From: Acidobacteriota bacterium | GTDB taxonomy: Bacteria; Acidobacteriota; UBA6911; RPQK01; JAJDTT01 | Reading direction: 5' to 3' | DNA length: 64,000 bases | Assembly: GCA_965209055.1 (NCBI GenBank) | Contig: OZ242374.1 | Coordinates: 2,976,001 to 3,040,000, forward strand | Part shown: positions 10,280-47,310 of the stretch, one piece after another | Position numbering within the stretch: position 1 is the stretch's first letter | Layout: each line of letters starts with the position of its first letter | The notes under the pieces: model-generated | Database searches by the model: none | Seen by the model: only the letters and a program-made list of their open reading frames with translations | What the model was told of the DNA's origin: nothing | Position numbers and translations under genes: made by a program

Positions 10280-11824
10280 ATGGGGGCATCCTGGGTGGGG
10301 AGACAGTCTTGTCTCCGTCTTCAACACCTGATCATTCTCGTCGCCGCTATGGGAGCCTCCGCCCCGGGCGCTTCCGCGGAAACCGTCGACGTGGGCTCCC
10401 GTCTCGAGCTCATGGTGGATGAACATCTCATCGACCGCATGTCGGGAGGAGCCCGGTTGCAGGTCCACCGGCCGGTCCGGCGGAACGTGGCCCTGGAGAC
10501 CGGTGAGCCCTGGGAGGGAAACGCCTCCTTCTACCGGACGGTGTTCCAGGACGGAAGCGTCTACCGGATGTACTACGGCGCCTGGCACTACGAGACGACG
10601 GAGACGGGAATGACCTACCCCCACCGTCCGTACCTCTGCTATGCGGAGAGCAGCGACGGTATCCACTTCCGGAAGCCGAAGCTGGGGCTGGTGGAGTTCC
10701 GGGGCAGCACGGACAACAACATCGTCCTCTCCGAGACCACGCTCAACTCGGTCGAAGCCGACCCCGGCCACGCCGCCGTCTTCATTGACGACAATCCCGA
10801 CTGTCCCGAAGACGCCCGCTACAAGATGATCATCCGGTCCCGGGGCGAAAAGGGTCTCTTGGCGCTCAAGTCGCCGGACGGATTCCGCTTCACCCCCATG
10901 TCGGACCGCGTTGTGATTTCGGAAGGGGCCTTCGATTCCCAGAACCTGGCCTTCTGGGACCCCGTGCGGCGAGAGTACCGGGCCTATTTTCGAGGATTCC
11001 GGGAGGGGATCAGGGACATTCTGACCGCCACCTCGGCCGATCTCCTGAACTGGACGAAACCGGTCTGGTGCGAGTATCCGGGGGCTCCGTCGGAACATCT
11101 CTACACCAACCAATTGCGGCCCTACTACCGGGCGCCCCACATCCTGGTGGGCTTTCCCATGCGCTACAAGGACCGGGGACCCACCGAAGCGACTTGGCGG
11201 CTACCGGGGCGTGAAGCCCGGGAGCACAGATCCTCCGTCAACCAACGCTATGGAACAGCCGTGTCCGACGCCCTCCTGATGACGGGCCGGGACCGGCATG
11301 ACTTCAAGCGTTGGGGAGAGGCCTTCATTCGACCCGGGCCCGCCCGGACCGACAGTTGGGTCTATGGAGACAACATGATCGCCTGGGGAATCGTCCAGAC
11401 CCGATCGGATCGTGTCGGTTCTCCCGACGAACTCTCCATCTACGTGGTGGAAGGGTACTGGGTGGGGCGAGGCATCAACGTTCGGCGTTACTCCCTCCGG
11501 ATGGACGGATTCGTATCCGTGCGGGCGCCGTTGGCCGGTGGGGAGATCGTGACCCGTCCTCTCCGATTCGACGGCAATCGGCTACGCCTCAACTATTCCA
11601 CCTCCGGCAGCGGCGGAATCTGGGTCGAACTCCAGGACGCGGACGGCAGGCCCCTGGAGGGTTTCAGCCAGGCGGATGCGGATGAGGTCTTCGGAGACCA
11701 GATCGAAGGCGTCGTGACCTGGAAGGGGAACCGTGACGTCAGGTCGCTCGCCGGCCAACCGGTCCGGATCCGGTTCGTTCTCAAGGACGCCGACCTGTAC
11801 GCTTTTCACTTTGCCGCCGACTAG
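10280..11824 (+). CDS. Secreted beta-propeller glycoside-hydrolase-like protein (paralog 1)
   Basis: Signal peptide, YAESSDGIHF, FDSQN, C-terminal LRMDGF...PVRIRFVLKDADLYAF. Start position uncertain. Confidence 0.7.
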   Translation: MGASWVGRQSCLRLQHLIILVAAMGASAPGASAETVDVGSRLELMVDEHLIDRMSGGARLQVHRPVRRNVALETGEPWEGNASFYRTVFQDGSVYRMYYGAWHYETTETGMTYPHRPYLCYAESSDGIHFRKPKLGLVEFRGSTDNNIVLSETTLNSVEADPGHAAVFIDDNPDCPEDARYKMIIRSRGEKGLLALKSPDGFRFTPMSDRVVISEGAFDSQNLAFWDPVRREYRAYFRGFREGIRDILTATSADLLNWTKPVWCEYPGAPSEHLYTNQLRPYYRAPHILVGFPMRYKDRGPTEATWRLPGREAREHRSSVNQRYGTAVSDALLMTGRDRHDFKRWGEAFIRPGPARTDSWVYGDNMIAWGIVQTRSDRVGSPDELSIYVVEGYWVGRGINVRRYSLRMDGFVSVRAPLAGGEIVTRPLRFDGNRLRLNYSTSGSGGIWVELQDADGRPLEGFSQADADEVFGDQIEGVVTWKGNRDVRSLAGQPVRIRFVLKDADLYAFHFAAD

Positions 11825-11846
11825 GAGGGGCGACTTTCAGTCGCCC
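11824..11846 (+). repeat. REP-type palindrome
   Basis: GGAG-GGGCGAC-TTTCA-GTCGCCC overlapping the stop codon. Confidence 0.7.
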
Positions 11847-11916
11847 TGTGCGGGGAGTAGGGGAGACGGTAGTCCTTCCACTGCAGTTGATGCACAATCG
11901 ATTAGAGGGACGAGCC

Positions 11917-12093
11917 ATGGAGAACGAGCCGATCATGAATGACCAAGGCTATCGCCGCACACTCAAGGCGATTGAAGGCCTGATGACTGCCAAGCGCGGC
12001 ACTCCTGAAGGCGACCGGCTGGATGTTCCAGTAACGTCGGTCGAGGCTTGGGAGGCGCTAGATTTTCCTGCGGACACCGGGATCGAGACGTGA
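11917..12093 (+). pseudogene. Truncated HigA-like antitoxin (N-terminal part only)
   Basis: PIMNDQGYRRTLKAIEGLMTAKRGTPEGDRLDV...VEAWE resembles HigA N-termini; the HTH domain is absent. Confidence 0.65.
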
Positions 12094-12174
12094 TTAGAGA
12101 ACCTGGCCGCGATGGACGCAGTGCGGAGGGCTTGCCACTCGGGGGCTATCGAGAGTTGATGTGCATTCTCCTGT
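12070..12174 (+). pseudogene. Decayed duplicate of the 3' end of the 9279-10271 oxidoreductase
   Basis: gagaacctggccgcgatggacgcagtgcggagggcttgccactcgggggctatcgagagttg matches about 10194-10254; in-frame stops are present. Confidence 0.8.
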
Positions 12175-12221
12175 GGGAATGCCGGCATTAGAACCAGGGA
12201 ATTCAGGGAGGAATCCGAAAA

Positions 12222-13742
12222 ATGCCGCTATTCGTGATCTTGCTCGTACTCGTCACCGGAACCGCCGTCATGGGCGCCTCCGACGGGGTCGCCGACGTGG
12301 GTTCGCGTCTTGAACTCATGGTGGATGAACATCTCATCGACCGCATGTCGGGAGGAGCCCGGCTGCAGCTCCACCATCCGGTCCGGCGGAACGTGGCTCT
12401 GGTGACCGATGCGCCCTGGGAAGGGAACGCCTGCCATTACCGCTCGGTGTTCCAGGACGGAAGCGGCCACCGGATGCGCTACCGGATGTACTACGGCGCC
12501 TATCAGTACGAGGTGACGGAGACGGGCCAGACCTATCCTCACCGCCCGTACCTCTGTTACGCCGAGAGCAGCGACGGCATCCACTTCCAGAAACCGAAGC
12601 TGGGACTGGTGGAGTTCCAAGGCAGCACGGACAACAACATCATCCTCTCCCAGACGACGCTGAGCTCGGTCGAGGCGGACCCCGGCCACGCCGCCATCTT
12701 CAAGGACGACAATCCCGACTGCCCCGAAGACGCCCGCTACAAGATGATCATCCGGTCCAGGGGCGAGAAGGGCCTGTTGGCGCTCAAGTCGCCGGACGGA
12801 CTCCGGTTCACCCCCATGTCGGACCGGGTGGTGATCTCCGAAGGGGCCTTCGATTCGCAGAACCTGGCTTTCTGGGACCCGGTGCGGGGAGAGTACCGGG
12901 CCTACTTCCGCGGGTTCCAGAACAAGGTCAGGGACATCCTGACGGCCACCTCTCCCGATTTCCTGAACTGGACGGACCCGGTCTGGTGCGAGTATCCGGG
13001 GGCGCCCCGGGAGCATCTCTACACCAACCAGTTGCGGCCCTACTACCGGGCGCCCCACATCCTGGTCGGTTTCCCCATGCGCTACAAGGACCGGGGCTCC
13101 ACCGAAGCGACCTGGCGCCTGCCGGGCCGGGAAGCCCGGGAGAACAGGTCGAAGGTATCCCAGCGCTACGGCACGGCCGTGACCGACTCGCTTTTGATGA
13201 CGGGCCGCGACCGGCTCCACTTCAAACGCTGGGGAGAGGCCTTCCTTCGACCCGGTCCTGCCCGAATCGACAGTTGGGTCTACGGAGACAACAGCATCGC
13301 CTGGGGAATCGTCCAGACCCGCTCCGACCGCGCCGGTTCTCCGGAAGAACTTTCCATCTACGTGGTGGAAGGGTACTGGATGGGCCGGAGCCTGAACGTG
13401 CGCCGCTACTCCCTGCGGATGGACGGTTTCGTCTCCGTGCAGGCGCCGTTGGCCGGTGGCGAGATGGTGACCCGGCCTCTTCGCTTCGAAGGCAATCGGC
13501 TTCGCCTCAACTATTCCACCTCGGGAAGCGGCGGGATCTGGGTCGAGCTCCAGGACGCGGACGGCAATTCGCTGGAGGGCTTCAGCCAGGCGGATGCGGA
13601 TGAGGTCTTCGGAGACCAGATTGAGGGCGTGGTGACCTGGAAGGGGAACCGGGACGTCAGCTCACTGGCCGGCAAGCCGGTCCGGATTCGGTTCGTCCTC
13701 AAGGACGCGGACCTGTACGCGTTTCGCTTTGCTTCCGATTGA
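12222..13742 (+). CDS. Secreted beta-propeller glycoside-hydrolase-like protein (paralog 2)
   Basis: Near-identical in protein sequence to 10280-11824 after the signal peptide. Confidence 0.75.
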   Translation: MPLFVILLVLVTGTAVMGASDGVADVGSRLELMVDEHLIDRMSGGARLQLHHPVRRNVALVTDAPWEGNACHYRSVFQDGSGHRMRYRMYYGAYQYEVTETGQTYPHRPYLCYAESSDGIHFQKPKLGLVEFQGSTDNNIILSQTTLSSVEADPGHAAIFKDDNPDCPEDARYKMIIRSRGEKGLLALKSPDGLRFTPMSDRVVISEGAFDSQNLAFWDPVRGEYRAYFRGFQNKVRDILTATSPDFLNWTDPVWCEYPGAPREHLYTNQLRPYYRAPHILVGFPMRYKDRGSTEATWRLPGREARENRSKVSQRYGTAVTDSLLMTGRDRLHFKRWGEAFLRPGPARIDSWVYGDNSIAWGIVQTRSDRAGSPEELSIYVVEGYWMGRSLNVRRYSLRMDGFVSVQAPLAGGEMVTRPLRFEGNRLRLNYSTSGSGGIWVELQDADGNSLEGFSQADADEVFGDQIEGVVTWKGNRDVSSLAGKPVRIRFVLKDADLYAFRFASD

Positions 13743-14813: not shown

Positions 14814-16358
14814 ATGAGATCAAAACGTTTCCTGGGATTCATCCTGTTGTTGCTCATTCTGCCGGCGCCGGGTCCGGCCTGGGCGGGGTCGAGCCACGAT
14901 TCCGATACCCGGGAGATCGGCTCCCGCCGGGAGCTTTTCGTCGACCACTATCTCATCGACCGGCTTCGGGGTGTCCACCTGCAACTGCACGAGCCGCGAC
15001 CCGCGGAGCAGGTGATCCGCATCGACCGTCCCTGGGAAAACGAGTTCAACTACGGGTACAAGGTCTTTCAGGAGGGGGGGCTTTACCACCTCTTCTACCT
15101 GGCCCGGACCACACTGCCGGCGGAGCAGAGGTTCCGCCGCGCCATCAGCTACGCCCGGAGCCGGGACGGGATCCACTGGGAGAAGCCGAACCTGGGACTG
15201 GTGGAGGTGGACGGCAGCCGGGAGAACAACGTGGTCATGCTGGGACGGCTGGTCCCCTTCGTGGACAACCGGCCGGGCGTACCGGCCAACCGGCGCATCA
15301 AGGCCACCAGCTCCCATTACCGGGACCGGCCCGATTGGAAGAACGAGCATCCCCTGGACGGAAGGAGGTACGTGGACCTGTTCCTCTACGAGTCCTCCGA
15401 CGGGTTGGATTTCCGCAAGGTGCAGGAAGATCCGGTCTTCATCACCACGCTCCCCAACGGCTTCGACGGCATCCAATCCATCTTCTGGTCCGAATCCGAG
15501 GGGAAGTATGTTCTCTACTTCCGATTCATGACCTCCAACCAAGGCCCCCGAAAACGCTCCGTGGCCCGGAGCACATCCCCGGATCTTCTGAGTTGGACCG
15601 ATCCCGTCCCCATGGAGTACACCACGGGAGGCATCGTCCCGCCCGAACATCTCTATGAGCACCAGACGGTCCAGTATTTCCGCGCTCCCCATATCTACGT
15701 CGCCTTCCCGCCGCGGTTCATGTATGGCCGCTCCGCGCTCACCAGGGAACAGGGCGAGGCCGCCGGCATCGTCTCGGACGCCACCCAACCGAACAATCCG
15801 AACTGGCTGACCCAGGACTGCGCGGACGCCGCCTTCATGACCTCCCGGGGGGGCACGCTCTACGACCGCACCTTCATGGGGGTCTTCGTCCGTCCGGGTC
15901 CGGACACCCTCAACTGGGTGTCCCGCACCAACTATCCGCTTCAGGGTGTGGTCCGGACGGGGCCGGCCGAGATGTCCATCTACGTGGGCCGGCACTATGG
16001 GCATCCCACGTGGCACATCCAGCGGTTGACCCTGCGGCTGGACGGATTCGCCTCCGTCAACGCGCCCTACGCCGGCGGCGAGATGATCACGAAGCCCCTG
16101 AAGTTTTCGGGGAGCCGTCTGGAGATCAACTACTCCACTTCGGCCGCTGGCGGATTGAGGGTGGAGATTCAAGACGGCGAGGGGAAGCCGATACCCGGAT
16201 TTTCACTTGCGGAGTGTCCCGAGATCATCGGAGACGAGATCGCCCGGGACGTGTCCTGGGAGAGTGGCGGGGACGTGGGCCGTCTTGCGGGGACCGCCGT
16301 GCGGCTCCGTTTCGTGATGAAGGACGCGGACCTCTACTCCATCCGGTTTCACGACTGA
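14814..16358 (+). CDS. Secreted beta-propeller glycoside-hydrolase-like protein (paralog 3, diverged)
   Basis: GGAGG RBS, signal peptide, IGSRRELFVD, YARSRDGIHWEKPNLG, LRLDGF...VRLRFVMKDADLYS. Confidence 0.75.
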   Translation: MRSKRFLGFILLLLILPAPGPAWAGSSHDSDTREIGSRRELFVDHYLIDRLRGVHLQLHEPRPAEQVIRIDRPWENEFNYGYKVFQEGGLYHLFYLARTTLPAEQRFRRAISYARSRDGIHWEKPNLGLVEVDGSRENNVVMLGRLVPFVDNRPGVPANRRIKATSSHYRDRPDWKNEHPLDGRRYVDLFLYESSDGLDFRKVQEDPVFITTLPNGFDGIQSIFWSESEGKYVLYFRFMTSNQGPRKRSVARSTSPDLLSWTDPVPMEYTTGGIVPPEHLYEHQTVQYFRAPHIYVAFPPRFMYGRSALTREQGEAAGIVSDATQPNNPNWLTQDCADAAFMTSRGGTLYDRTFMGVFVRPGPDTLNWVSRTNYPLQGVVRTGPAEMSIYVGRHYGHPTWHIQRLTLRLDGFASVNAPYAGGEMITKPLKFSGSRLEINYSTSAAGGLRVEIQDGEGKPIPGFSLAECPEIIGDEIARDVSWESGGDVGRLAGTAVRLRFVMKDADLYSIRFHD

Positions 16359-20069: not shown

Positions 20070-20240
20070 GGAGCGGCGGTTGCCAAGCGCCGAACTCTGG
20101 AGCGAACGTGTGGAGCATGGAGGAGAGGGCGATTGGAAATCGCCCCTCCTTTTTCGAGGAATGGAGCGGCGGTTTCCAACCGCCGGATCCCCGTGGAGCA
20201 TGGAGGAATGGGCGGTTGGAAATCGCCCCTCCTTTTTCGT
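20070..20240. repeat. BIME-like cluster of alternating REP palindromes
   Basis: GGAGCGGCGGTT(G/T)CCAA(G/C)CGCC alternates with GGGCG(A/G)TTGGAAATCGCCCCTCC; two units. Confidence 0.8.
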
Positions 20241-20258
20241 AGAAGGGAAACCAGACTC

Positions 20259-28379: not shown

Positions 28380-28573
28380 TCGTACGAAACACTCCCGTTG
28401 GAAAAGCCTTGCACGATTATATCCCGCCACCGCGACTTCCTTCCACCTGGGCCGGGGACTGTTAGTCCCAACTGTCCCACAGTCAAAGACTACCGAACGT
28501 TAACGTTTTCAATTATTTACCGGGTTCTTCGCCGAATCGGTAAAGTGGTTGACTCTCCATGTTTGACATGCTG

Positions 28574-28592
28574 AACAGGCAACAAACAGGCA
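28574..28592 (+). promoter_or_regulatory. Putative integrase arm-type binding repeats (left)
   Basis: AACAGGCAACAAACAGGCA; the same motif recurs at 31077-31098 and in copy 1 (about 648-666). Confidence 0.65.
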
Positions 28593-29205
28593 GCCGAATC
28601 GGTTCCTGAAAGCCGACGCGCCCCTTATCCCCCTTCCGTTGCCTGGCTCAGAGACCTTATCAGATAGGCTTTGCCGACCGTTTGGCTCCACCGGAGGACT
28701 CTGCCTGAGGCCGAAGATGTCCGGCTTCAAGCGGCAGGGCATTCCCAAGGATCAGCATCCCCAGCAAGTGTACTACGGCGCGGTGGGGAAGACCCGCCGC
28801 GACTTGGCGTTCAAACTGCCGATTGCCGTCAAGGCGGACCGGACCGTCTTCGTCCGTGTCGATCCGGAGCACTCGACCGACCAGGGCCGGCTCAACTCCT
28901 AAGGCAGGGTGACGGCCGCCCTGAAGCGGGCGGTCGAGTTGCAACCAGCGGCAGAAGTTCGCTCCTTCCAGGTCGGGATTGACGGTGAACGCACTTGGCC
29001 GTCGCAAGGGCCAATGGAGGCTCGTTTCGGCAGTGCGTCAAGAGGGTCTCGCGCCCGATCCGGGATGTGAATGGGACAAAGGGGGTGGATTCACAAAAAG
29101 AGGTCCCGGTGACTCACAAATGCACTCTCCCGGATCTTGTTTCCTTTCAGTCAGTTGCGGCCCTATTTCCGGCCACCGGGTGGCCGCACGGGGAAAGTGG
29201 AGGTG

Positions 29206-29302
29206 GACGGGAGCGACCCCCCCTTTTTGCCGCCCAGTGCGGGCGCGGGGGTGTTGCGCAATTCACATTTGCGCAGCACCCCCTGGGGGGGTCGCTCCCG
29301 TC
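29206..29302. repeat. Nested inverted repeats (large hairpin)
   Basis: Perfect 18-bp arms 29206-29223/29285-29302 enclose a 15-bp hairpin 29247-29261/29269-29283 with one G-T pair. Confidence 0.85.
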
Positions 29303-30030
29303 GAAATTATCCCTAGCGGGAAGGCAAGAGATGACACCCTGACGGGCAAGATGGGATGCAGGAGCATCCCTGATATCCACAACAATAAGGAACGGCTGGA
29401 GGCCCTCAGGAAGCAGGCGGTGGAGAAGCTCCGCGGCCGCCGCGCTTACCGCTGTCCGCGCTGTGGCTGTCAGAGCTACGAGAAAGATTTTGACCGGACA
29501 AGAAGAAGAGACACCTACCAACTGAAAAGCCCTTCCAGTGAGCGCCGAGGCCCTGTGTTCGAGCCTCCCCACCGTGTGGAAAATCAGAGATTTCCCACAG
29601 GGTGCGTCGTTTTGCTGACCCCACAATCAGCGCCGCCCACGAAAGAAAGCCGGCTCCCGGCTGGAAGCCGTCCGAGACCGCGCGAGGGACCCGTTCTTAT
29701 GGGACGCGACAAACAGGAGCGCGTGAAAAAGAGTCCGGCATGGTGAGCCTGACTCTTTGAGGGCGCAACTGGGGGGTCTGGGGGGATAGTTCCCCCCGGT
29801 CCGTCATCCGTTCCGGCTTGCCGGCCTCGCGGACCAGGACGAAATCGGCCCGCCGTTGGAGGACCTCGACCACGGTCGCGGTCCAGGCCTCTCCGGCCCG
29901 CGTTGTGATCTGGATGGAGCCGCCGCCGCGTCCTCGCTCTGAAGGACCTGAACGCCGACGTCGATTCTCTGGCGCCGTGGTAGGATTCGCCCCATGGCGA
30001 AGAACCCGGATCCGGAAAGGAGGAGATGCT

Positions 30031-31119
30031 ATGGGCATCTACAAGGTGAAGGATCGCCGGGGGAGAAGACGCTATGTCGTCAGCAAGTACTGGCCGCACG
30101 GATCCGGTCGGCTTCGAATGTACGCCCCCAACTACCGGAGCGCACAGGCGCTTCAAACACGAATCGAGTCCAGCATCCTGGACGGCACATGGAAGCAGCT
30201 CAAGGAGGAACTCGCCGGCGGGAACCGCACCGTCTGGACGGTCCGGAGCTTCTACGAGCGTTTCTTCGAGGAGTACTGCAAACCTCGCATGCGCTCCCGG
30301 CGTCGCTATGCGCTCTCGTTCAAGAGCCTCAACGCCATGCTGGGAAACATTCCCCTGAAGGAGTTCCGACGCAAGGACCTGTACCGCTATGTCGCCAAAA
30401 GGAAGAAGCAAGTGCAGCCGGCCACGGTGAACCGGGACATTGCCGCCATCAGCAAGCTGTTTTCCTACGCGCTTGAGTGCGGAGAAGTGGACACGCACCC
30501 GCTGGTGAGATTCCCCAAACTCAAAGAACCCAAGAAGGTCTTCCGGCCCTTGACGGTTCAACAGTTCCGCGACCTGGTCGAGGCGATGGACAACCCCTGC
30601 CTGCAAGCCATGGTTGCGGTGATCGGCGAGACGGGGATACGGAAAGGCGAAGCGTTGTCGCTCACCTGGAAACGGGTGGACCTATCCCGGAGTCTGCTAT
30701 GGGTGGAGTTCACCAAGAACGACGAGCCGAGGGAGATTCCGCTCTCGAAGTATGCTGCTGGATACCTGACCGGGCTGGTTCGCTACCTGAACACGCCATA
30801 CGTTTTCGTCAACAGCCGGACTGGCACGAGATGGGTGAATCCGGACAAGCCGTTGCGCCGGGCCGCCGAGCGGGTGGGGTTGAAGGTCGGATTTCACGAC
30901 CTGAGACGATTCCGGTGCAGCCATTGGCTGATGCAGGGGGTGGACGTGAGAACGGTGCAGAAGCTGATGGGTCACTCGGCGATCAGCACGACCATGCGCT
31001 ACGCCGGGTACGTCAGTTCCCATGCGCTTGCCAGCATACGGGAGGCACAGGCTACCGAAGACTCACAAATGCGCCCGGCAACAAACAGGCAACAGGCAGG
31101 AAATAGGGGGAATGACTAG
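30031..31119 (+). CDS. Phage-type tyrosine integrase
   Basis: AGGAGG RBS; PATVNRD, TGIRKGE (R), TKND (K), HDLRR, LMGHS, MRY catalytic set intact. Confidence 0.95.
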   Translation: MGIYKVKDRRGRRRYVVSKYWPHGSGRLRMYAPNYRSAQALQTRIESSILDGTWKQLKEELAGGNRTVWTVRSFYERFFEEYCKPRMRSRRRYALSFKSLNAMLGNIPLKEFRRKDLYRYVAKRKKQVQPATVNRDIAAISKLFSYALECGEVDTHPLVRFPKLKEPKKVFRPLTVQQFRDLVEAMDNPCLQAMVAVIGETGIRKGEALSLTWKRVDLSRSLLWVEFTKNDEPREIPLSKYAAGYLTGLVRYLNTPYVFVNSRTGTRWVNPDKPLRRAAERVGLKVGFHDLRRFRCSHWLMQGVDVRTVQKLMGHSAISTTMRYAGYVSSHALASIREAQATEDSQMRPATNRQQAGNRGND

Positions 31120-31157
31120 AGGAGAGCAGTGGCGTAACCCCTTGAAAATAAAAGCAA

Positions 31158-31201
31158 GCGCCCCAAGCTCAGCAGGACAGAGCGCGGGACTGTTAGTCCC
31201 C
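31158..31201 (+). other. tRNA-like 5' half (acceptor strand, D arm, anticodon arm) overlapping attR
   Basis: GCGCCCC-AA-GCTC-AGCAGGACA-GAGC-G-CGGGA-CTGTTAG-TCCC; no T arm or 3' acceptor strand follows. Confidence 0.7.
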
Positions 31202-31720
31202 CCGTCCCCTTTGCGCCAATCCTCCAATTGAAGTTCGGCGGTTGAAAACCCCCGTTCCTTCTCCACGGTCCCACTCCCGGGCCATTTGCTTCAAATCCGC
31301 CACAATACTGCTGTAGGCGGGGTCGCCGTACAGGTTGCGCTGCTCCCAGGGGTCGTTCAGGAGATGGTAGAGGGACCCGTCCTCGTCGGGTACCCGCTCG
31401 TCCATGAAGAAGACCAGCTTCCATTCCCGGGTCCGGACCATGACCCGCCGTCCCCCGCTGCGGCGAAGTTCCTCGTAGGCATCTTCGCTGTGATCGTGCT
31501 CCGAGAAACAGGCCCGGCGCCACTCCCGGACCTCGCCCCGGATCAAGGGCAGCAGGCTCCGGCCCCGAATCCCGGAGGGCGGGTCGAAACCGGACAGCTC
31601 CAGCAGCGTCGGCAGGAAGTCCACCATCTCCACCGGCTCCGTCACCACCTTGCCCTGAGGCAGCAGCCCTGGAGCCCGAAGGATGAACGGGACCTTGACG
31701 TTGGTGTCGTAGAAATCCCG
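31193..31720 (-). pseudogene. 3' part of a split sulfatase
   Basis: DFYDTNVKVPFILRAPG...VDFLPTLLEL...GRSL...MVRTREWKL...LYHLLNDPWEQRNL is a sulfatase C-terminus; joins in frame to 43366-44366. Confidence 0.9.
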
Positions 31721-31780
31721 ATTGTCGGGTGTCCTGGTCTGGAAACCAACGGCCGAACGTATAATAAACCGGAGGTTGTA

Positions 31781-32767
31781 ATGGGAAAAGTCATCAACTT
31801 CAGACCGAGACGAGCCTGTCTGTTCAATGTGGAGACCATGGCCCGGATCAACACCAAAACCGAGTCGCCACGACTCACCCGAGCCCTGGAGAGCAAATCG
31901 GAGACCACGGCCAGAACCTACAGGAACGCCATAAACGGATTTGACCGGTGGGCCAACGGCCGCCCCGTCTCGGATGAGACTTTGGCCGAATATGTCACTC
32001 ACCTCCATGAGACCGGGAAGTCTCCTGCATATGTTCGAGTCTGCATTTCCGGTCTCCGGTTTCGGGAAAAGGCACTGGGAAGACGAGACCCTAAAGGCAT
32101 GGAGACCGGTATGGCCCTGGATATCTCCCGCAGGAAGGGCAGAGGCAGAGGGAAGGGACAGGCACCCCACCTCACTAAAGACCAGATTCAGAAAATTGGC
32201 GAGGTAGCGGTGTTGTCCGGGAGTCTCTGGGGCCTGAGAGACCGGGCCGTCATCTCCACCATGTTCGCGGCCGGTCTGAGAGTCTCTGAGGCTTGCGAGT
32301 TGGAGGTGAGAGACCTGGAATGCCTCGAAGACGGGAGCGGCCTGCTCACAGTTCGATTCTCGAAGACGGATTCAGAGGGTAAGGGATTCACCATGGGTCT
32401 GTCTCCCGGACCGGTCCGGCATCTTTGCGAATGGATAGAACGAGCTAGTCTCAGGGACCGGGATCCCCTATTCCCGGCGATTCATTCCAAGGGTGTGGAC
32501 AATTTCCAAACCCGGATTGTCAGATACAAGGCATCAACCAAGACCATGGCCCGGATCGTCTCAACTCGTGCTGAGGCTGCCGGGTTTCCCGGTGTGACAA
32601 GTCATTCCATGCGGCGGTCGTTTGCCGCTCATTTGAGTTTACAGGGTCTCCGAACTCATCAAATCCAAGAGGCGGGTAGGTGGACTTCACCTAATATGGT
32701 GCTCCAGTACACACAAGGGGCCCGGGCCACTCGGTCCAAAGTCGTGGCGGCCATGGCATGGGAGTAG
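31781..32767 (+). CDS. Cre-like tyrosine recombinase
   Basis: GGAGG RBS with TATAAT upstream; LRDRA, AGLRVSE, FSKTD, SHSMRR, GRW (Cre-type Trp), MVLQY. Confidence 0.92.
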   Translation: MGKVINFRPRRACLFNVETMARINTKTESPRLTRALESKSETTARTYRNAINGFDRWANGRPVSDETLAEYVTHLHETGKSPAYVRVCISGLRFREKALGRRDPKGMETGMALDISRRKGRGRGKGQAPHLTKDQIQKIGEVAVLSGSLWGLRDRAVISTMFAAGLRVSEACELEVRDLECLEDGSGLLTVRFSKTDSEGKGFTMGLSPGPVRHLCEWIERASLRDRDPLFPAIHSKGVDNFQTRIVRYKASTKTMARIVSTRAEAAGFPGVTSHSMRRSFAAHLSLQGLRTHQIQEAGRWTSPNMVLQYTQGARATRSKVVAAMAWE

Positions 32768-42715: not shown

Positions 42716-42718
42716 GGG

Positions 42719-42802
42719 TCCCCGGCGTGGGACTCGAACCCACACGACCTCTCGGCCACCAGATTTTAAGTCTAGCGCGTCCGCCAATTCTGCCAACCGG
42801 GG
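42719..42802 (-). tRNA. tRNA-Leu(UAA)
   Basis: Acceptor CCCCGGT/GCCGGGG, A73, anticodon arm CTAGA-CTTAAAA-TCTGG, long variable arm, GTGGG-TTCGAGT-CCCAC; CCA not encoded. Confidence 0.92.
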
Positions 42803-42899
42803 ACATTCCCAATACTGATCCAAACTGCGAGTTCCGTACAGGCCAGCAGTCCGGCACAGAGACGGGAACGGTTATCGGTAGCCGCCGAAAGGGGGGGTG

Positions 42900-45907: not shown

Positions 45908-45949
45908 GTTCGTCTCCGGGGAGATTCGCGATTCATCAAATTACCCTGC

Positions 45950-46147
45950 TGCGGGGGAGTCCGGCGGTTAGGAAACCGCCGCTCCAGGAAGGGCGATTTC
46001 CAATCGCCCGTTCTTCCGTCGCCGCTTTGTTGCGGGGGAGTCCGGCGGTTAGGAAACCGCCGCTCCAGGAGGGGCGATTTCCAATCGCCCGTTCTTCCGT
46101 CGCCGCTTTGTTGCGGGAGAGTCCGGCGGTTAGGAAACCGCCGTTCC
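45950..46147. repeat. BIME-like tandem array with 81-bp period (about 2.4 units)
   Basis: Units start at 45950, 46031 and 46112; palindromes GGCGGTTAGGAAACCGCC and GGGCGATTTCCAATCGCCC alternate with identical linkers. Confidence 0.88.
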
Positions 46148-46176
46148 TTTTGGGAAAAGATATAGTCCATTCCACG

Positions 46177-47310
46177 TCATTCTCCGGCAACGGCCTGTTC
46201 CAGTTGGCGGGCCGCCTGGCTCAACGCCTTCACCCTTCCGGTCGCCGTGTCCACTCCCCAGACGAAATGCACCGGTTGTCCGCCGAACTGTTCGGCAATC
46301 AGATCCACCAGGAGTTCCGAGCCCCGGCGGCCGGCGATGCTCCATTCCGCGAAACGCGTGCTGGGAACCTGGCCGTCCACCAGCCGTTGCGCCGCCTTCG
46401 ATCCCGACAACAGGTCCCGGTAAGCCTTTTCGGCCTCCTCCAACTGGCGCTTTTCCGCCTCCTCGTCGGCGGACTTCCGCTCAGGCGCGGGGGGTGTGCC
46501 GGCGGTCGGGGCTGTCCCGCCGTCAGGCTCCCGGACCAGGACCGGCCGGTCCCCCGGGCGCGGCGGCCGCGGGGGCTTGGGCTTTTCCGGTTTGGGGGGT
46601 GGCAAGGGGGCCGGTTCGGGCGCAGCGGCGGCCCGTGCCTTCGGTGGCGGCTTGATCTCCTGCTGGGGAGGGGAGGCGGTCGGGGTAGTGCCGGCGCCGG
46701 ATTCATCGGTCTCGACGGGATCCGAGTCGACGGCCGTGGTGGCGCTGGAAGCCGCAGTTTGGCCGGAACCGGCGTCGACGGGCGTCCCGACAGGCGCGGG
46801 GGGGACCGGCGGCTCGGGTGCGGGATCCGTGACGGCGGCCGGAGCCGTTTCCGTTGGAGCTTCTCCACCGCCGATCAGAAGCAGGACCAGGACCGCCGAC
46901 AGAACCACCACCGCTCCGGCCAGAATGGGTGCCATGGGCAGGCGGCGCCGCTTCTCGGTCTTGCGGTCTCGAAAGACCTCGTCGAAGAGGGACGCCGTAC
47001 CGCTGGCGGGGGGAAGGGGCGCGTCCGCCGACGGACCGGGGCCGGCCTCCGAAACCGGAGAAGGAACCCTTGCGACGGAGGCCTCCGCGCCGGCGCGGGC
47101 CTCTTTCTGTCCGGGATGCTGCATCAGGACCTGGTAGGCGTCGTGAATCTCCCGGATCTTGACGGCGGCCTTGGACCGGAGCCGCGGGTGCGATTTCAGG
47201 CGGCTCGGGTCCCACAGCGCCAGGAGATCGTCACGAGCCTCCACGATTTCCTTGACGGTGGCACCCGGCTTCAGGTCCAGGATGCGAAAGGCTTGCTCGA
47301 TATCGGTCAT
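46177..47310 (-). CDS. J-domain-like membrane protein with Pro-rich linker
   Basis: AFRILDL...EIHDAYQVL J-like N-terminus (WDPS in place of HPD), one TM segment, Pro/Ala-rich region. Confidence 0.7.
   Translation of the reverse strand: MTDIEQAFRILDLKPGATVKEIVEARDDLLALWDPSRLKSHPRLRSKAAVKIREIHDAYQVLMQHPGQKEARAGAEASVARVPSPVSEAGPGPSADAPLPPASGTASLFDEVFRDRKTEKRRRLPMAPILAGAVVVLSAVLVLLLIGGGEAPTETAPAAVTDPAPEPPVPPAPVGTPVDAGSGQTAASSATTAVDSDPVETDESGAGTTPTASPPQQEIKPPPKARAAAAPEPAPLPPPKPEKPKPPRPPRPGDRPVLVREPDGGTAPTAGTPPAPERKSADEEAEKRQLEEAEKAYRDLLSGSKAAQRLVDGQVPSTRFAEWSIAGRRGSELLVDLIAEQFGGQPVHFVWGVDTATGRVKALSQAARQLEQAVAGE

Follow-up and report, generated by a model that had tools for sequence, protein, structure and literature searches.

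A tRNA-Arg-derived element end in an Acidobacteriota genome points to an integrase lineage retargeted from a tRNA gene to REP-like hairpins

Forty-four bases spaced like the 5' half of a tRNA stand 38 nt behind an integrase gene, and the locus raises the question of what such a half tRNA is and how it came to lie at the end of a mobile element. The window analyzed here is the whole stretch of 64,000 nucleotides (G000:C1:2976001-3040000) from a genome of 6.08 Mb and 62.8% G+C, a metagenome-assembled genome in a single contig with an estimated contamination of 7.4%; public sequencing runs that contain the 44-base stretch are mainly sponge and coral-reef metagenomes. The original prediction had described an Arg-like tRNA body with an Asn-like loop in the spacing of tRNA positions 1-42, and this spacing is indeed present from 31158 to 31200/1, in segments of 7-2-4-9-4-1-5-7-4 nt. 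As argued below, the stretch is very probably the element-borne half of attR, with its origin in nt 1-32 of a tRNA-Arg gene, in a lineage that was retargeted from a tRNA gene to REP hairpins.

The stretch forms the right end of a 2.75-kb element (28455-31200) bounded by a 15-bp direct repeat, GGGACTGTTAGTCCC, which occurs on the forward strand at 28455-28469 and 31186-31200 and, inverted, at 771-787. A search with a 17-mer, allowing up to three mismatches, returned these three matches in the window against 0.20 expected, and none of 100 shuffles reached three. In the left copy, the attL core, the heptamer lies at 28459-28465, flanked on the left by a host hairpin arm and on the right by the element; in the right copy, the attR core, the 3' arm of the host hairpin begins at 31197. 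The relic of the tRNA (nt 1-32, 31158-31189, forward strand) starts 38 nt past the integrase stop codon, on the inner, integrase side of attR and thus within the direct repeats, and comprises the acceptor strand (31158-31164), the D arm (31167-31183) and the anticodon stem's 5' strand (31185-31189). Where a tRNA would have its anticodon loop stands the putative crossover heptamer CTGTTAG (31190-31196, forward strand), identical to the loop of the targeted REP hairpin taken together with its closing pair. On its 3' side follow the host hairpin arm and then the flank with the sulfatase gene; the T arm and the 3' acceptor strand are absent. The 7-nt loop had been placed at the center of the direct repeat, and CTGTTAG is exactly central in GGGACTGTTAGTCCC; as a loop of seven it holds for the tRNA layout only, the REP hairpin itself having a 5-nt loop and a closing pair.

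The sulfatase reading frame in this flank (31196-32170, reverse strand) encodes a C-terminal domain only (PF16347), and homology to same-genus genomes ends at about 31723. A second, unrelated PF00589 recombinase is encoded nearby at 31901-32764 on the forward strand, and from the sequence it looks as if another insertion truncated the sulfatase gene. Elsewhere in the window, a coding segment of 1.9 kb is duplicated in tandem (10329-12778, 81-88% identity), with a third, more distant copy at about 15134-16084.

The element's integrase gene (30031-31119, forward strand) encodes a tyrosine integrase of 362 amino acids plus stop (PF00589, E 6.6e-26) with N-terminal SAM-like domains. It is the only enzyme that Pfam finds in the element, with no DDE or DEDD transposase, and the five other reading frames of the element match no Pfam family. 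The attL core is followed by a conserved left-end module (28470-28610, forward strand), the P' arm, which recurs at 30 places in the genome and is also found beside a displaced tRNA-Arg fragment in the same-genus genome G200. Within it, two ACAGGCA-like repeats (28575-28596, forward strand) are candidate arm-type integrase sites, with similar motifs near the 3' end of the integrase gene; the left end shares a 19-nt match with the 3' end of the G200 integrase gene. Candidate arm-type repeats of the P arm lie within the 3' end of the window's own integrase gene (31078-31100, forward strand), with similar motifs in G200 and in a further genome, G190. Between the integrase stop codon and the tRNA or relic stands the motif TAA, four bases, TTGAAAA (31135-31148, forward strand), which is kept in hairpin-type relatives and in tRNA-linked relatives of both co-directional and convergent arrangement, and is possibly an accessory-protein site. 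A sigma-70 promoter of the ancestral tRNA in the conserved TTGAAA motif was considered and rejected by eye, as transcription would then start inside the tRNA. The interior of the element holds a module with a core at 29200-29335 (wider extent 28990-29335, forward strand) and a sharp right edge at about 29335; its approximately 62 genome copies are more than twice the number of integrases, and the depth of metagenome contigs is highest over 29200-29335. This module may contain an open reading frame of about 110 amino acids on the forward strand, and its overlapping reading frames have no Pfam match.

To what extent is the likeness to tRNA-Arg real? In a blastn-short search of the whole 6.08-Mb genome, a query of 34 nt from the start of the host tRNA-Arg(TCT) gene (c[307704,307778]) matches 31158-31191 of the window over its full length with 28/34 identities and E 5e-4, and the match begins exactly at tRNA nt 1. 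The best matches of this query are its own gene and tRNA-Arg(TCG), followed by the right ends of integrase elements interleaved with other Arg genes; sister copies of the element match over 29-31 nt at 93-97% identity (E 2e-6). When the 32-mer of the window was compared with the 5' parts of 68 host tRNAs, the top five were the five tRNA-Arg genes (27, 26, 25, 25 and 24 identities of 32), the best non-Arg score was 22/32 for a tRNA-Gly, and the median was 15. The same anchored search in 20,000 random genome windows of 330 nt, a sample that retained the real tRNAs and element copies, had its mode at 14/32 and reached at least 22 in 18 windows. The Arg-like body of the original prediction is thereby borne out, with tRNA-Asn outside the seven top-scoring host tRNAs. 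It should be noted that the copy in the window (26/32 ungapped identities to Arg(TCT), 27/32 to Arg(TCG)) does not by itself tell the isoacceptor; we consider Arg(UCU) the most likely source.

Structure-based searches were silent at this site. RF00005, with a gathering score of 29 bits, gave no match at E<=10 at the locus in searches of 601 and 101 nt, Rfam at gathering thresholds found nothing at the relic in a search of the whole window, and the sole ARAGORN call in the window is a tRNA-Leu. The stretch is not a tRNA gene, and since both the covariance model and ARAGORN are silent, its identity as tRNA-derived rests on primary-sequence homology and context. Two observations had been named in advance as together speaking against a tRNA origin, silence of the covariance model and integrase homologs that are never tRNA-linked; the first was made here, whereas linkage to tRNA genes was found among the homologs, as described below. 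The silence of RF00005 and ARAGORN is also what one would expect if a GC-rich hairpin flank resembled the tRNA spacing by chance, a reading to which we give next to no credence given the genome-wide E-value of 5e-4 for the window copy and down to 2e-6 in sister copies, the exclusive presence of Arg among the five best of 68 host tRNAs, the scarcity of scores of at least 22/32 in the random windows, and the complete tRNA-Arg genes that relatives hold at the same place.

The tRNA-Leu(TAA) called by ARAGORN (42716-42803, reverse strand) is one of seven in the genome, and three of the others (477237, 1991443 and 2524782) are each contained in a repeat of about 4 kb, the repeats sharing 90-93% identity; these copies are thus probably carried by another repeated element. 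They were considered as a second case of the same integrase and rejected, as no such integrase lies within 2.5 kb.

The genome encodes 26 copies of the integrase, with 88-100% amino acid identity, none less than 4 kb from a tRNA gene; one is cut by the contig end, and the counts of relics refer to the 25 complete copies. All 25 carry the relic, with 22-28 of 32 positions identical to nt 1-32 of tRNA-Arg(TCT), ungapped and whatever the flanks, and in all 25 the register of relic to heptamer is constant. The heptamers fall into five types, CTGTTAG (8 copies), CTAACAG (7), TTTCCAA (5), TTTCCTA (4) and TTTCTAA (1), each of which matches the loop of the REP-like hairpin family occupied by its subfamily, and on the 3' side the heptamer is continued by the 3' arm belonging to a host hairpin family. 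The left ends mirror this arrangement: 28 of 30 consist of a host hairpin 5' arm, the same heptamer, TCCC and the element. In the TTTCCTA subfamily the identity of attP and attB is confined to the heptamer, which would place strand exchange inside it and bounds the staggered cuts, 6-8 bp apart in integration of the lambda type. The heptamer TTTCTAA differs by a single base from the Arg anticodon loop CTTCTAA.

These subfamilies also bear on two details of the original prediction. The loss of U8 stands in so far as T8 is replaced in the window (AA for the TA of the tRNA), and among the copies it is restricted to the window's subfamily. The Asn-like loop does not stand: GTT is the loop of the hairpin and has no tRNA-Asn meaning, and a sister subfamily uses the same hairpin reversed (CTAACAG).

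The targets fit REP sequences in being short, many-copy, intergenic palindromes, and hairpins differ among the orthologous spacers of same-genus genomes. With flanks read by eye, the 37 exact copies of GGGACTGTTAGTCCC in the genome divide into 10 attL, 8 attR, a further 7 attL that belong to the inverted subfamily, and 12 unoccupied hairpins; the hairpin half of the TTTCCAA type, TTTCCAATCGC, occurs 98 times, mostly as hairpins, and that of the TTTCTAA type, TTTCTAATCGC, 16 times. From the order and orientation of the GGGACTGTTAGTCCC copies, elements of the CTGTTAG type range from 2.7 to about 20.6 kb. The window holds part of a second element of this subfamily, with the left end and attL core at 650-787 on the reverse strand; it spans 2974085-2976786 of the genome, extending beyond the window start, and its integrase is 98% identical to that described above. 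The genome is rich in several hairpin families, as illustrated by tandem units of 81-83 nt at 45947-46189 and 20110-20248 of the window, each with two REP-like hairpins (one of CGGCGGTTAGGAAACCGCCG type and one of GGGCGATTTCCAATCGCCC type). For a Y1 transposase of the RAYT type, there are two weak PF01797 matches (30.8 and 23.6 bits), one beside an element copy: the match of 30.8 bits (L069, G000:C1:1142970-1143203) lies about 650 nt past the right end of the TTTCTAA copy.

Evidence for mobility comes from both occupied and empty sites. At 6074464-6077182 a twin element with 99.96% identity over 2719 nt stands between different flanks. A metagenome contig (run X2; a single contig of 205 nt and depth 4.2, with 18 ambiguous letters, placed at 90% likeness) joins 28450 to 31182 and omits 2731 nt. 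In four same-genus genomes both flanks are 54-202 nt apart with no integrase between them; an exact orthologous empty site with the same hairpin was not found among these four, the spacers of which carry other hairpins. Displaced tDNA fragments are common at island ends according to the Islander study (PMC4383910), and the relic might likewise be what the insertion left of a host tRNA-Arg gene formerly present here, in which case the 5' half would be host DNA. We regard this as extremely improbable, because the relic is enclosed by the direct repeats, toward the integrase gene, recurs in 25 complete copies with unrelated flanks and is absent from the empty-site contig, and because the spacers of the same-genus genomes contain REP hairpins only and no tRNA.

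An element-borne origin of the relic leads to the question of where the element acquired it. Close relatives come from metagenome-assembled genomes of Acidobacteriota or Candidatus Aminicenantes. In 12 of 15 close-relative loci, in other Acidobacteriota genomes, the integrase is again followed by an Arg-like relic, a heptamer and a hairpin arm, with the further heptamers CTTTCCT, TTTCTAG, CTTCCAG, CTTTTAG and CTTTCAG; of the remaining three, two (L011 and L014) are interrupted, and the third, L018, holds a distant homolog next to a tRNA-Leu. ARAGORN found no tRNA on 24 close-relative loci save beside L018, and 23 tRNAs in 22 of 30 loci from a sample of 401 genomes of the phylum; none of the conclusions drawn here depends on the unpublished genome G152. 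The three nearest integrases that are not of the hairpin type, L028 (83% amino acid identity, TCT), L029 (73%, TCG) and L030 (72%, TCT), all lie upstream of a complete, co-directional tRNA-Arg with a gap of about 40-50 nt, which answers the call in the original prediction to look for integrase homologs next to complete tRNAs. Among homologs with at most 52% identity, the usual geometry prevails, in which the integrase gene is directed at the 3' end of a tRNA (Arg, Thr, Leu, Ser, Ala).

Phylogenetic analysis of 39 rows placed the hairpin clade (17 rows, 100/95) as sister to L028 (100/96), followed by L029 and L030 (100/100) and then by the types convergent with tRNAs, such that the hairpin-targeting clade is nested among tRNA-Arg-linked integrases. 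The tree is midpoint-rooted, and rows L045, L050 and L053 are without an established target; because of this rooting, the polarity of the target change is inferred. Two of the distant homologs, L043 and L053, run co-directionally into a tRNA with the integrase stop codon inside the tRNA 5' part (Arg-CCG and a Met-like 3' part, respectively), a further arrangement of integrase and tRNA genes. At L060 (G190:C1:5128001-5148000) and L059 (G250:C21), one tRNA-Arg(TCG) stands between two integrases, of which the homolog of 72-73% identity is 5' of it and that of 48-55% converges on its 3' end; with both sides flanked in this way, both halves of the tRNA may be element-supplied.

The putative ancestral arrangement is preserved in G200, where only 40 nt separate a sister integrase gene from a complete tRNA-Arg(TCT) downstream of it. 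The homology of this region to the ends of the elements in G000 runs through the integrase gene and the tRNA 5' part, ending at tRNA nt 34-42. A pattern search with the first 34 nt located a second fragment, 47 kb upstream and co-oriented, which is identical to the tRNA over nt 1-42 but is not itself a tRNA gene. This far fragment has the loop CTTCTAA and TCC and continues into sequence homologous to the left end of the window's element, the left-end module being matched at 2022394-2022548 of G200 with 80% identity over 155 nt. G000 aligns both to the downstream flank and the whole of the G200 tRNA and to tRNA nt 1-42 with 1.3 kb upstream; since these two alignments overlap in nt 1-42, G000 represents the unoccupied tRNA site, and the island in G200 supplies the 5' part of its tRNA. 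G200 thus carries a 47-kb island in tRNA-Arg(TCT), with an element-borne copy of nt 1-42 beside the integrase gene and the displaced host copy at the far end. In the window, by contrast, each end of the element is half a hairpin, and a full cognate tRNA gene is absent; the pair of tRNA and displaced fragment is seen only in the relative G200.

In G190, two blocks of 2427 bp, each of 1.2 kb plus integrase gene and tRNA-Arg, are 99.9% identical with three differences, one in approximately 2384 nt before the anticodon and two in approximately 43 nt from anticodon position 3 onward; these two are the third anticodon base (TCT vs. TCG) and a base of the T loop. Such a distribution is what one would expect if the same element-borne 5' part had been joined to different genes of the host. 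Neither block has an att-like repeat at its left edge, and no displaced 5' fragment was found at the loci in G190 and G250 within the DNA examined there; the pattern search that located the G200 fragment allowed no indels and would have missed the longer D loop of G190.

Since the tRNA relic is retained in the element, the target change would have run from tRNA to hairpin, and the direction suggested by the tree is in line with the decay of the relic. Between subfamilies, the relic has p-distances of 0.46 (nt 1-9), 0.24 (nt 10-26) and 0.31 (nt 27-32), compared with 0.057 for codon positions 1+2 of the integrase gene, 0.18 for position 3 and 0.35 for the 45-nt spacer. Ten of the 25 copies have an incompletely paired D stem with no consistent compensation, and these uncompensated losses indicate that no tRNA-type constraint acts on it. 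Some columns are retained nevertheless: CTCA, GGACAGAG and the GGA by the heptamer are at least 90% conserved across subfamilies, which makes a role as protein-binding DNA possible. The D-arm part might accordingly have been co-opted from the tRNA and kept as a working attP site for the integrase or an accessory protein. The increase of conservation toward the crossover (0.46 for nt 1-9 vs. 0.24 for nt 10-26) and the unchanged register to the heptamer in all 25 copies agree with such a site, whereas the faster divergence of the D-arm part than of integrase third positions (0.24 vs. 0.18) and the broken, uncompensated D stem do not. We judge a co-opted site to be a realistic possibility, though less likely than not; it is compatible with the tRNA origin of the relic and does not exclude it.

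By analogy to RNA-guided recombinases, the tRNA-like end could instead be transcribed into a tRNA-like or guide RNA that helps to choose the hairpin target. Integrases of the CTGTTAG and CTAACAG subfamilies are 95-96% identical, and such a shift of target with few protein changes could be taken to place the determinant of specificity in nucleic acid beside the relic. Yet tyrosine recombinases ordinarily require the attP and attB heptamers to be identical, and no RNA is needed to account for the pattern; structural covariation is absent, with D-stem pairs lost uncompensated, no Rfam family matches, and none of the public runs holding the stretch is recorded as RNA. A transcribed guide is, in our estimation, very unlikely.

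The explanation that we favor, descent from a tRNA-Arg target, would then comprise the following steps. An ancestral element would have integrated in the anticodon loop of tRNA-Arg in the rare geometry of the 5' type, its attP carrying a copy of the tRNA 5' part beside the integrase gene, so that the gene was rebuilt from the 5' half of the element and the 3' half of the host. A descendant lineage would have moved to REP-like hairpins, which are laid out alike, with a 7-bp spacer between inverted arms; the strands would be exchanged inside the heptamer, and the attP heptamer would have been replaced by the sequence of the hairpin loop, the subfamilies now having different heptamers for different hairpin families. 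With no tRNA left to be rebuilt, the tRNA-derived part would decay, fastest at its acceptor end, while the GGA/TCC pairs beside the heptamer and much of the D-arm sequence would persist, probably as core or accessory sites of the integrase. The original prediction of a relic of a tRNA-Arg target with its heptamer changed to match the REP loop thus finds support in the alignment, in G200, in the tree and in the subfamily heptamers matching their loops.

As an object, the relic is of a known kind, an island-end tDNA fragment of the rare 5' type. Islands using the 5' part of a tRNA gene were reportedly described by Zhao and Williams in 2002 as having a "reversed target orientation". In both such islands and the window's element, the integrase-proximal end holds the tRNA 5' part in gene orientation, G200 being a plain example; the window's element differs in that its partner is a REP-like hairpin, no tRNA is rebuilt, the tDNA is degenerate and the loop heptamer has been replaced. 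That an element carrying the 5' part is the rarer case, as had been stated at the outset, agrees with the Islander study, which counts 3760 islands with 3' fragments and 159 with a 5' tDNA fragment among 3919 (PMC4383910), and with a second source according to which 5'-distal integration in tRNAs is considerably rarer than 3' (PMC6563490). Islander also gives 2083 anticodon-centered attP sites (PMC4383910), and in a further paper the 7-bp anticodon loop and its palindromic stem are said to match the layout of att overlap and core, and pTN3-like archaeal integrases are given as users of the tRNA 5' part (PMC8371274).

The window family shares with anticodon-centered integration of the lambda type a heptamer at the position of the anticodon loop, flanked by stem-derived GGA and TCC, and the features of lambda-type integration are present in the direct repeat of 15 bp at both ends, the 12 empty hairpins and the one bridging contig. 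It differs in targeting multi-copy extragenic hairpins, and in having at least 10 heptamers among integrases that are 72-100% identical, most of them at least 88%. Insertion into REP or BIME hairpins is known for IS1397 and ISKpn1 (IS3 family) and for ISPpu9/10 and IS621 (IS110 family). REP-inserting IS elements use DDE or DEDD transposases, with RNA guides in the IS110 family. They too use REP-like palindromes as specific, multi-copy landing sites with insertion centered on the hairpin; the window's element differs in its PF00589 tyrosine integrase with att-site homology. Specificity that moves with the crossover or overlap sequence of attP, and not with the protein, has counterparts in Ms6, the attP core of which was altered to reach other tRNA-Ala T loops (PMC1762012), and in the overlap promiscuity of HK022 Int (PMC7736782); both are laboratory manipulations, whereas the series in the window family is natural and has left tRNA genes altogether. 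Full-text literature searches returned nothing on point for tyrosine recombinases or integrases that target REP hairpins, and no retargeting from a tRNA to such hairpins came up in that literature; the move of the lineage to REP hairpins, its heptamer being replaced serially, appears to be new.

Tyrosine recombination that recognizes hairpins exists in the integron integrase IntI with attC and in XerCD with the folded attP of the CTX phage. As there, the target of the window's element is a sequence that forms a stem-loop and has variable arms; in contrast to these systems, ordinary duplex recombination at a dyad-symmetric site suffices to account for it. A bolder proposal is that the integrase family reads the geometry of a dyad with a 7-bp spacer and not the arms, that the attP heptamer programs the target in cis, and that the enzyme may, like integron integrases, act on extruded or single-stranded hairpins; we put this forward tentatively and think it unlikely as a whole. 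If it were true, a single-site tRNA integrase could become a transposon-like colonizer of any REP family, and ten natural settings of the heptamer are already on record.

Related genomes thus keep both states side by side, an island in the anticodon loop of tRNA-Arg, the probable ancestral state, and insertion into hairpins at 26 copies per genome, the derived one. The series of heptamers indicates that specificity was rewritten mainly in the DNA of attP, the integrases staying at least 88% identical, and the family offers a natural experiment in recombinase retargeting that bears on the evolution of mobile DNA and of REP sequences and on the reprogramming of integrases.
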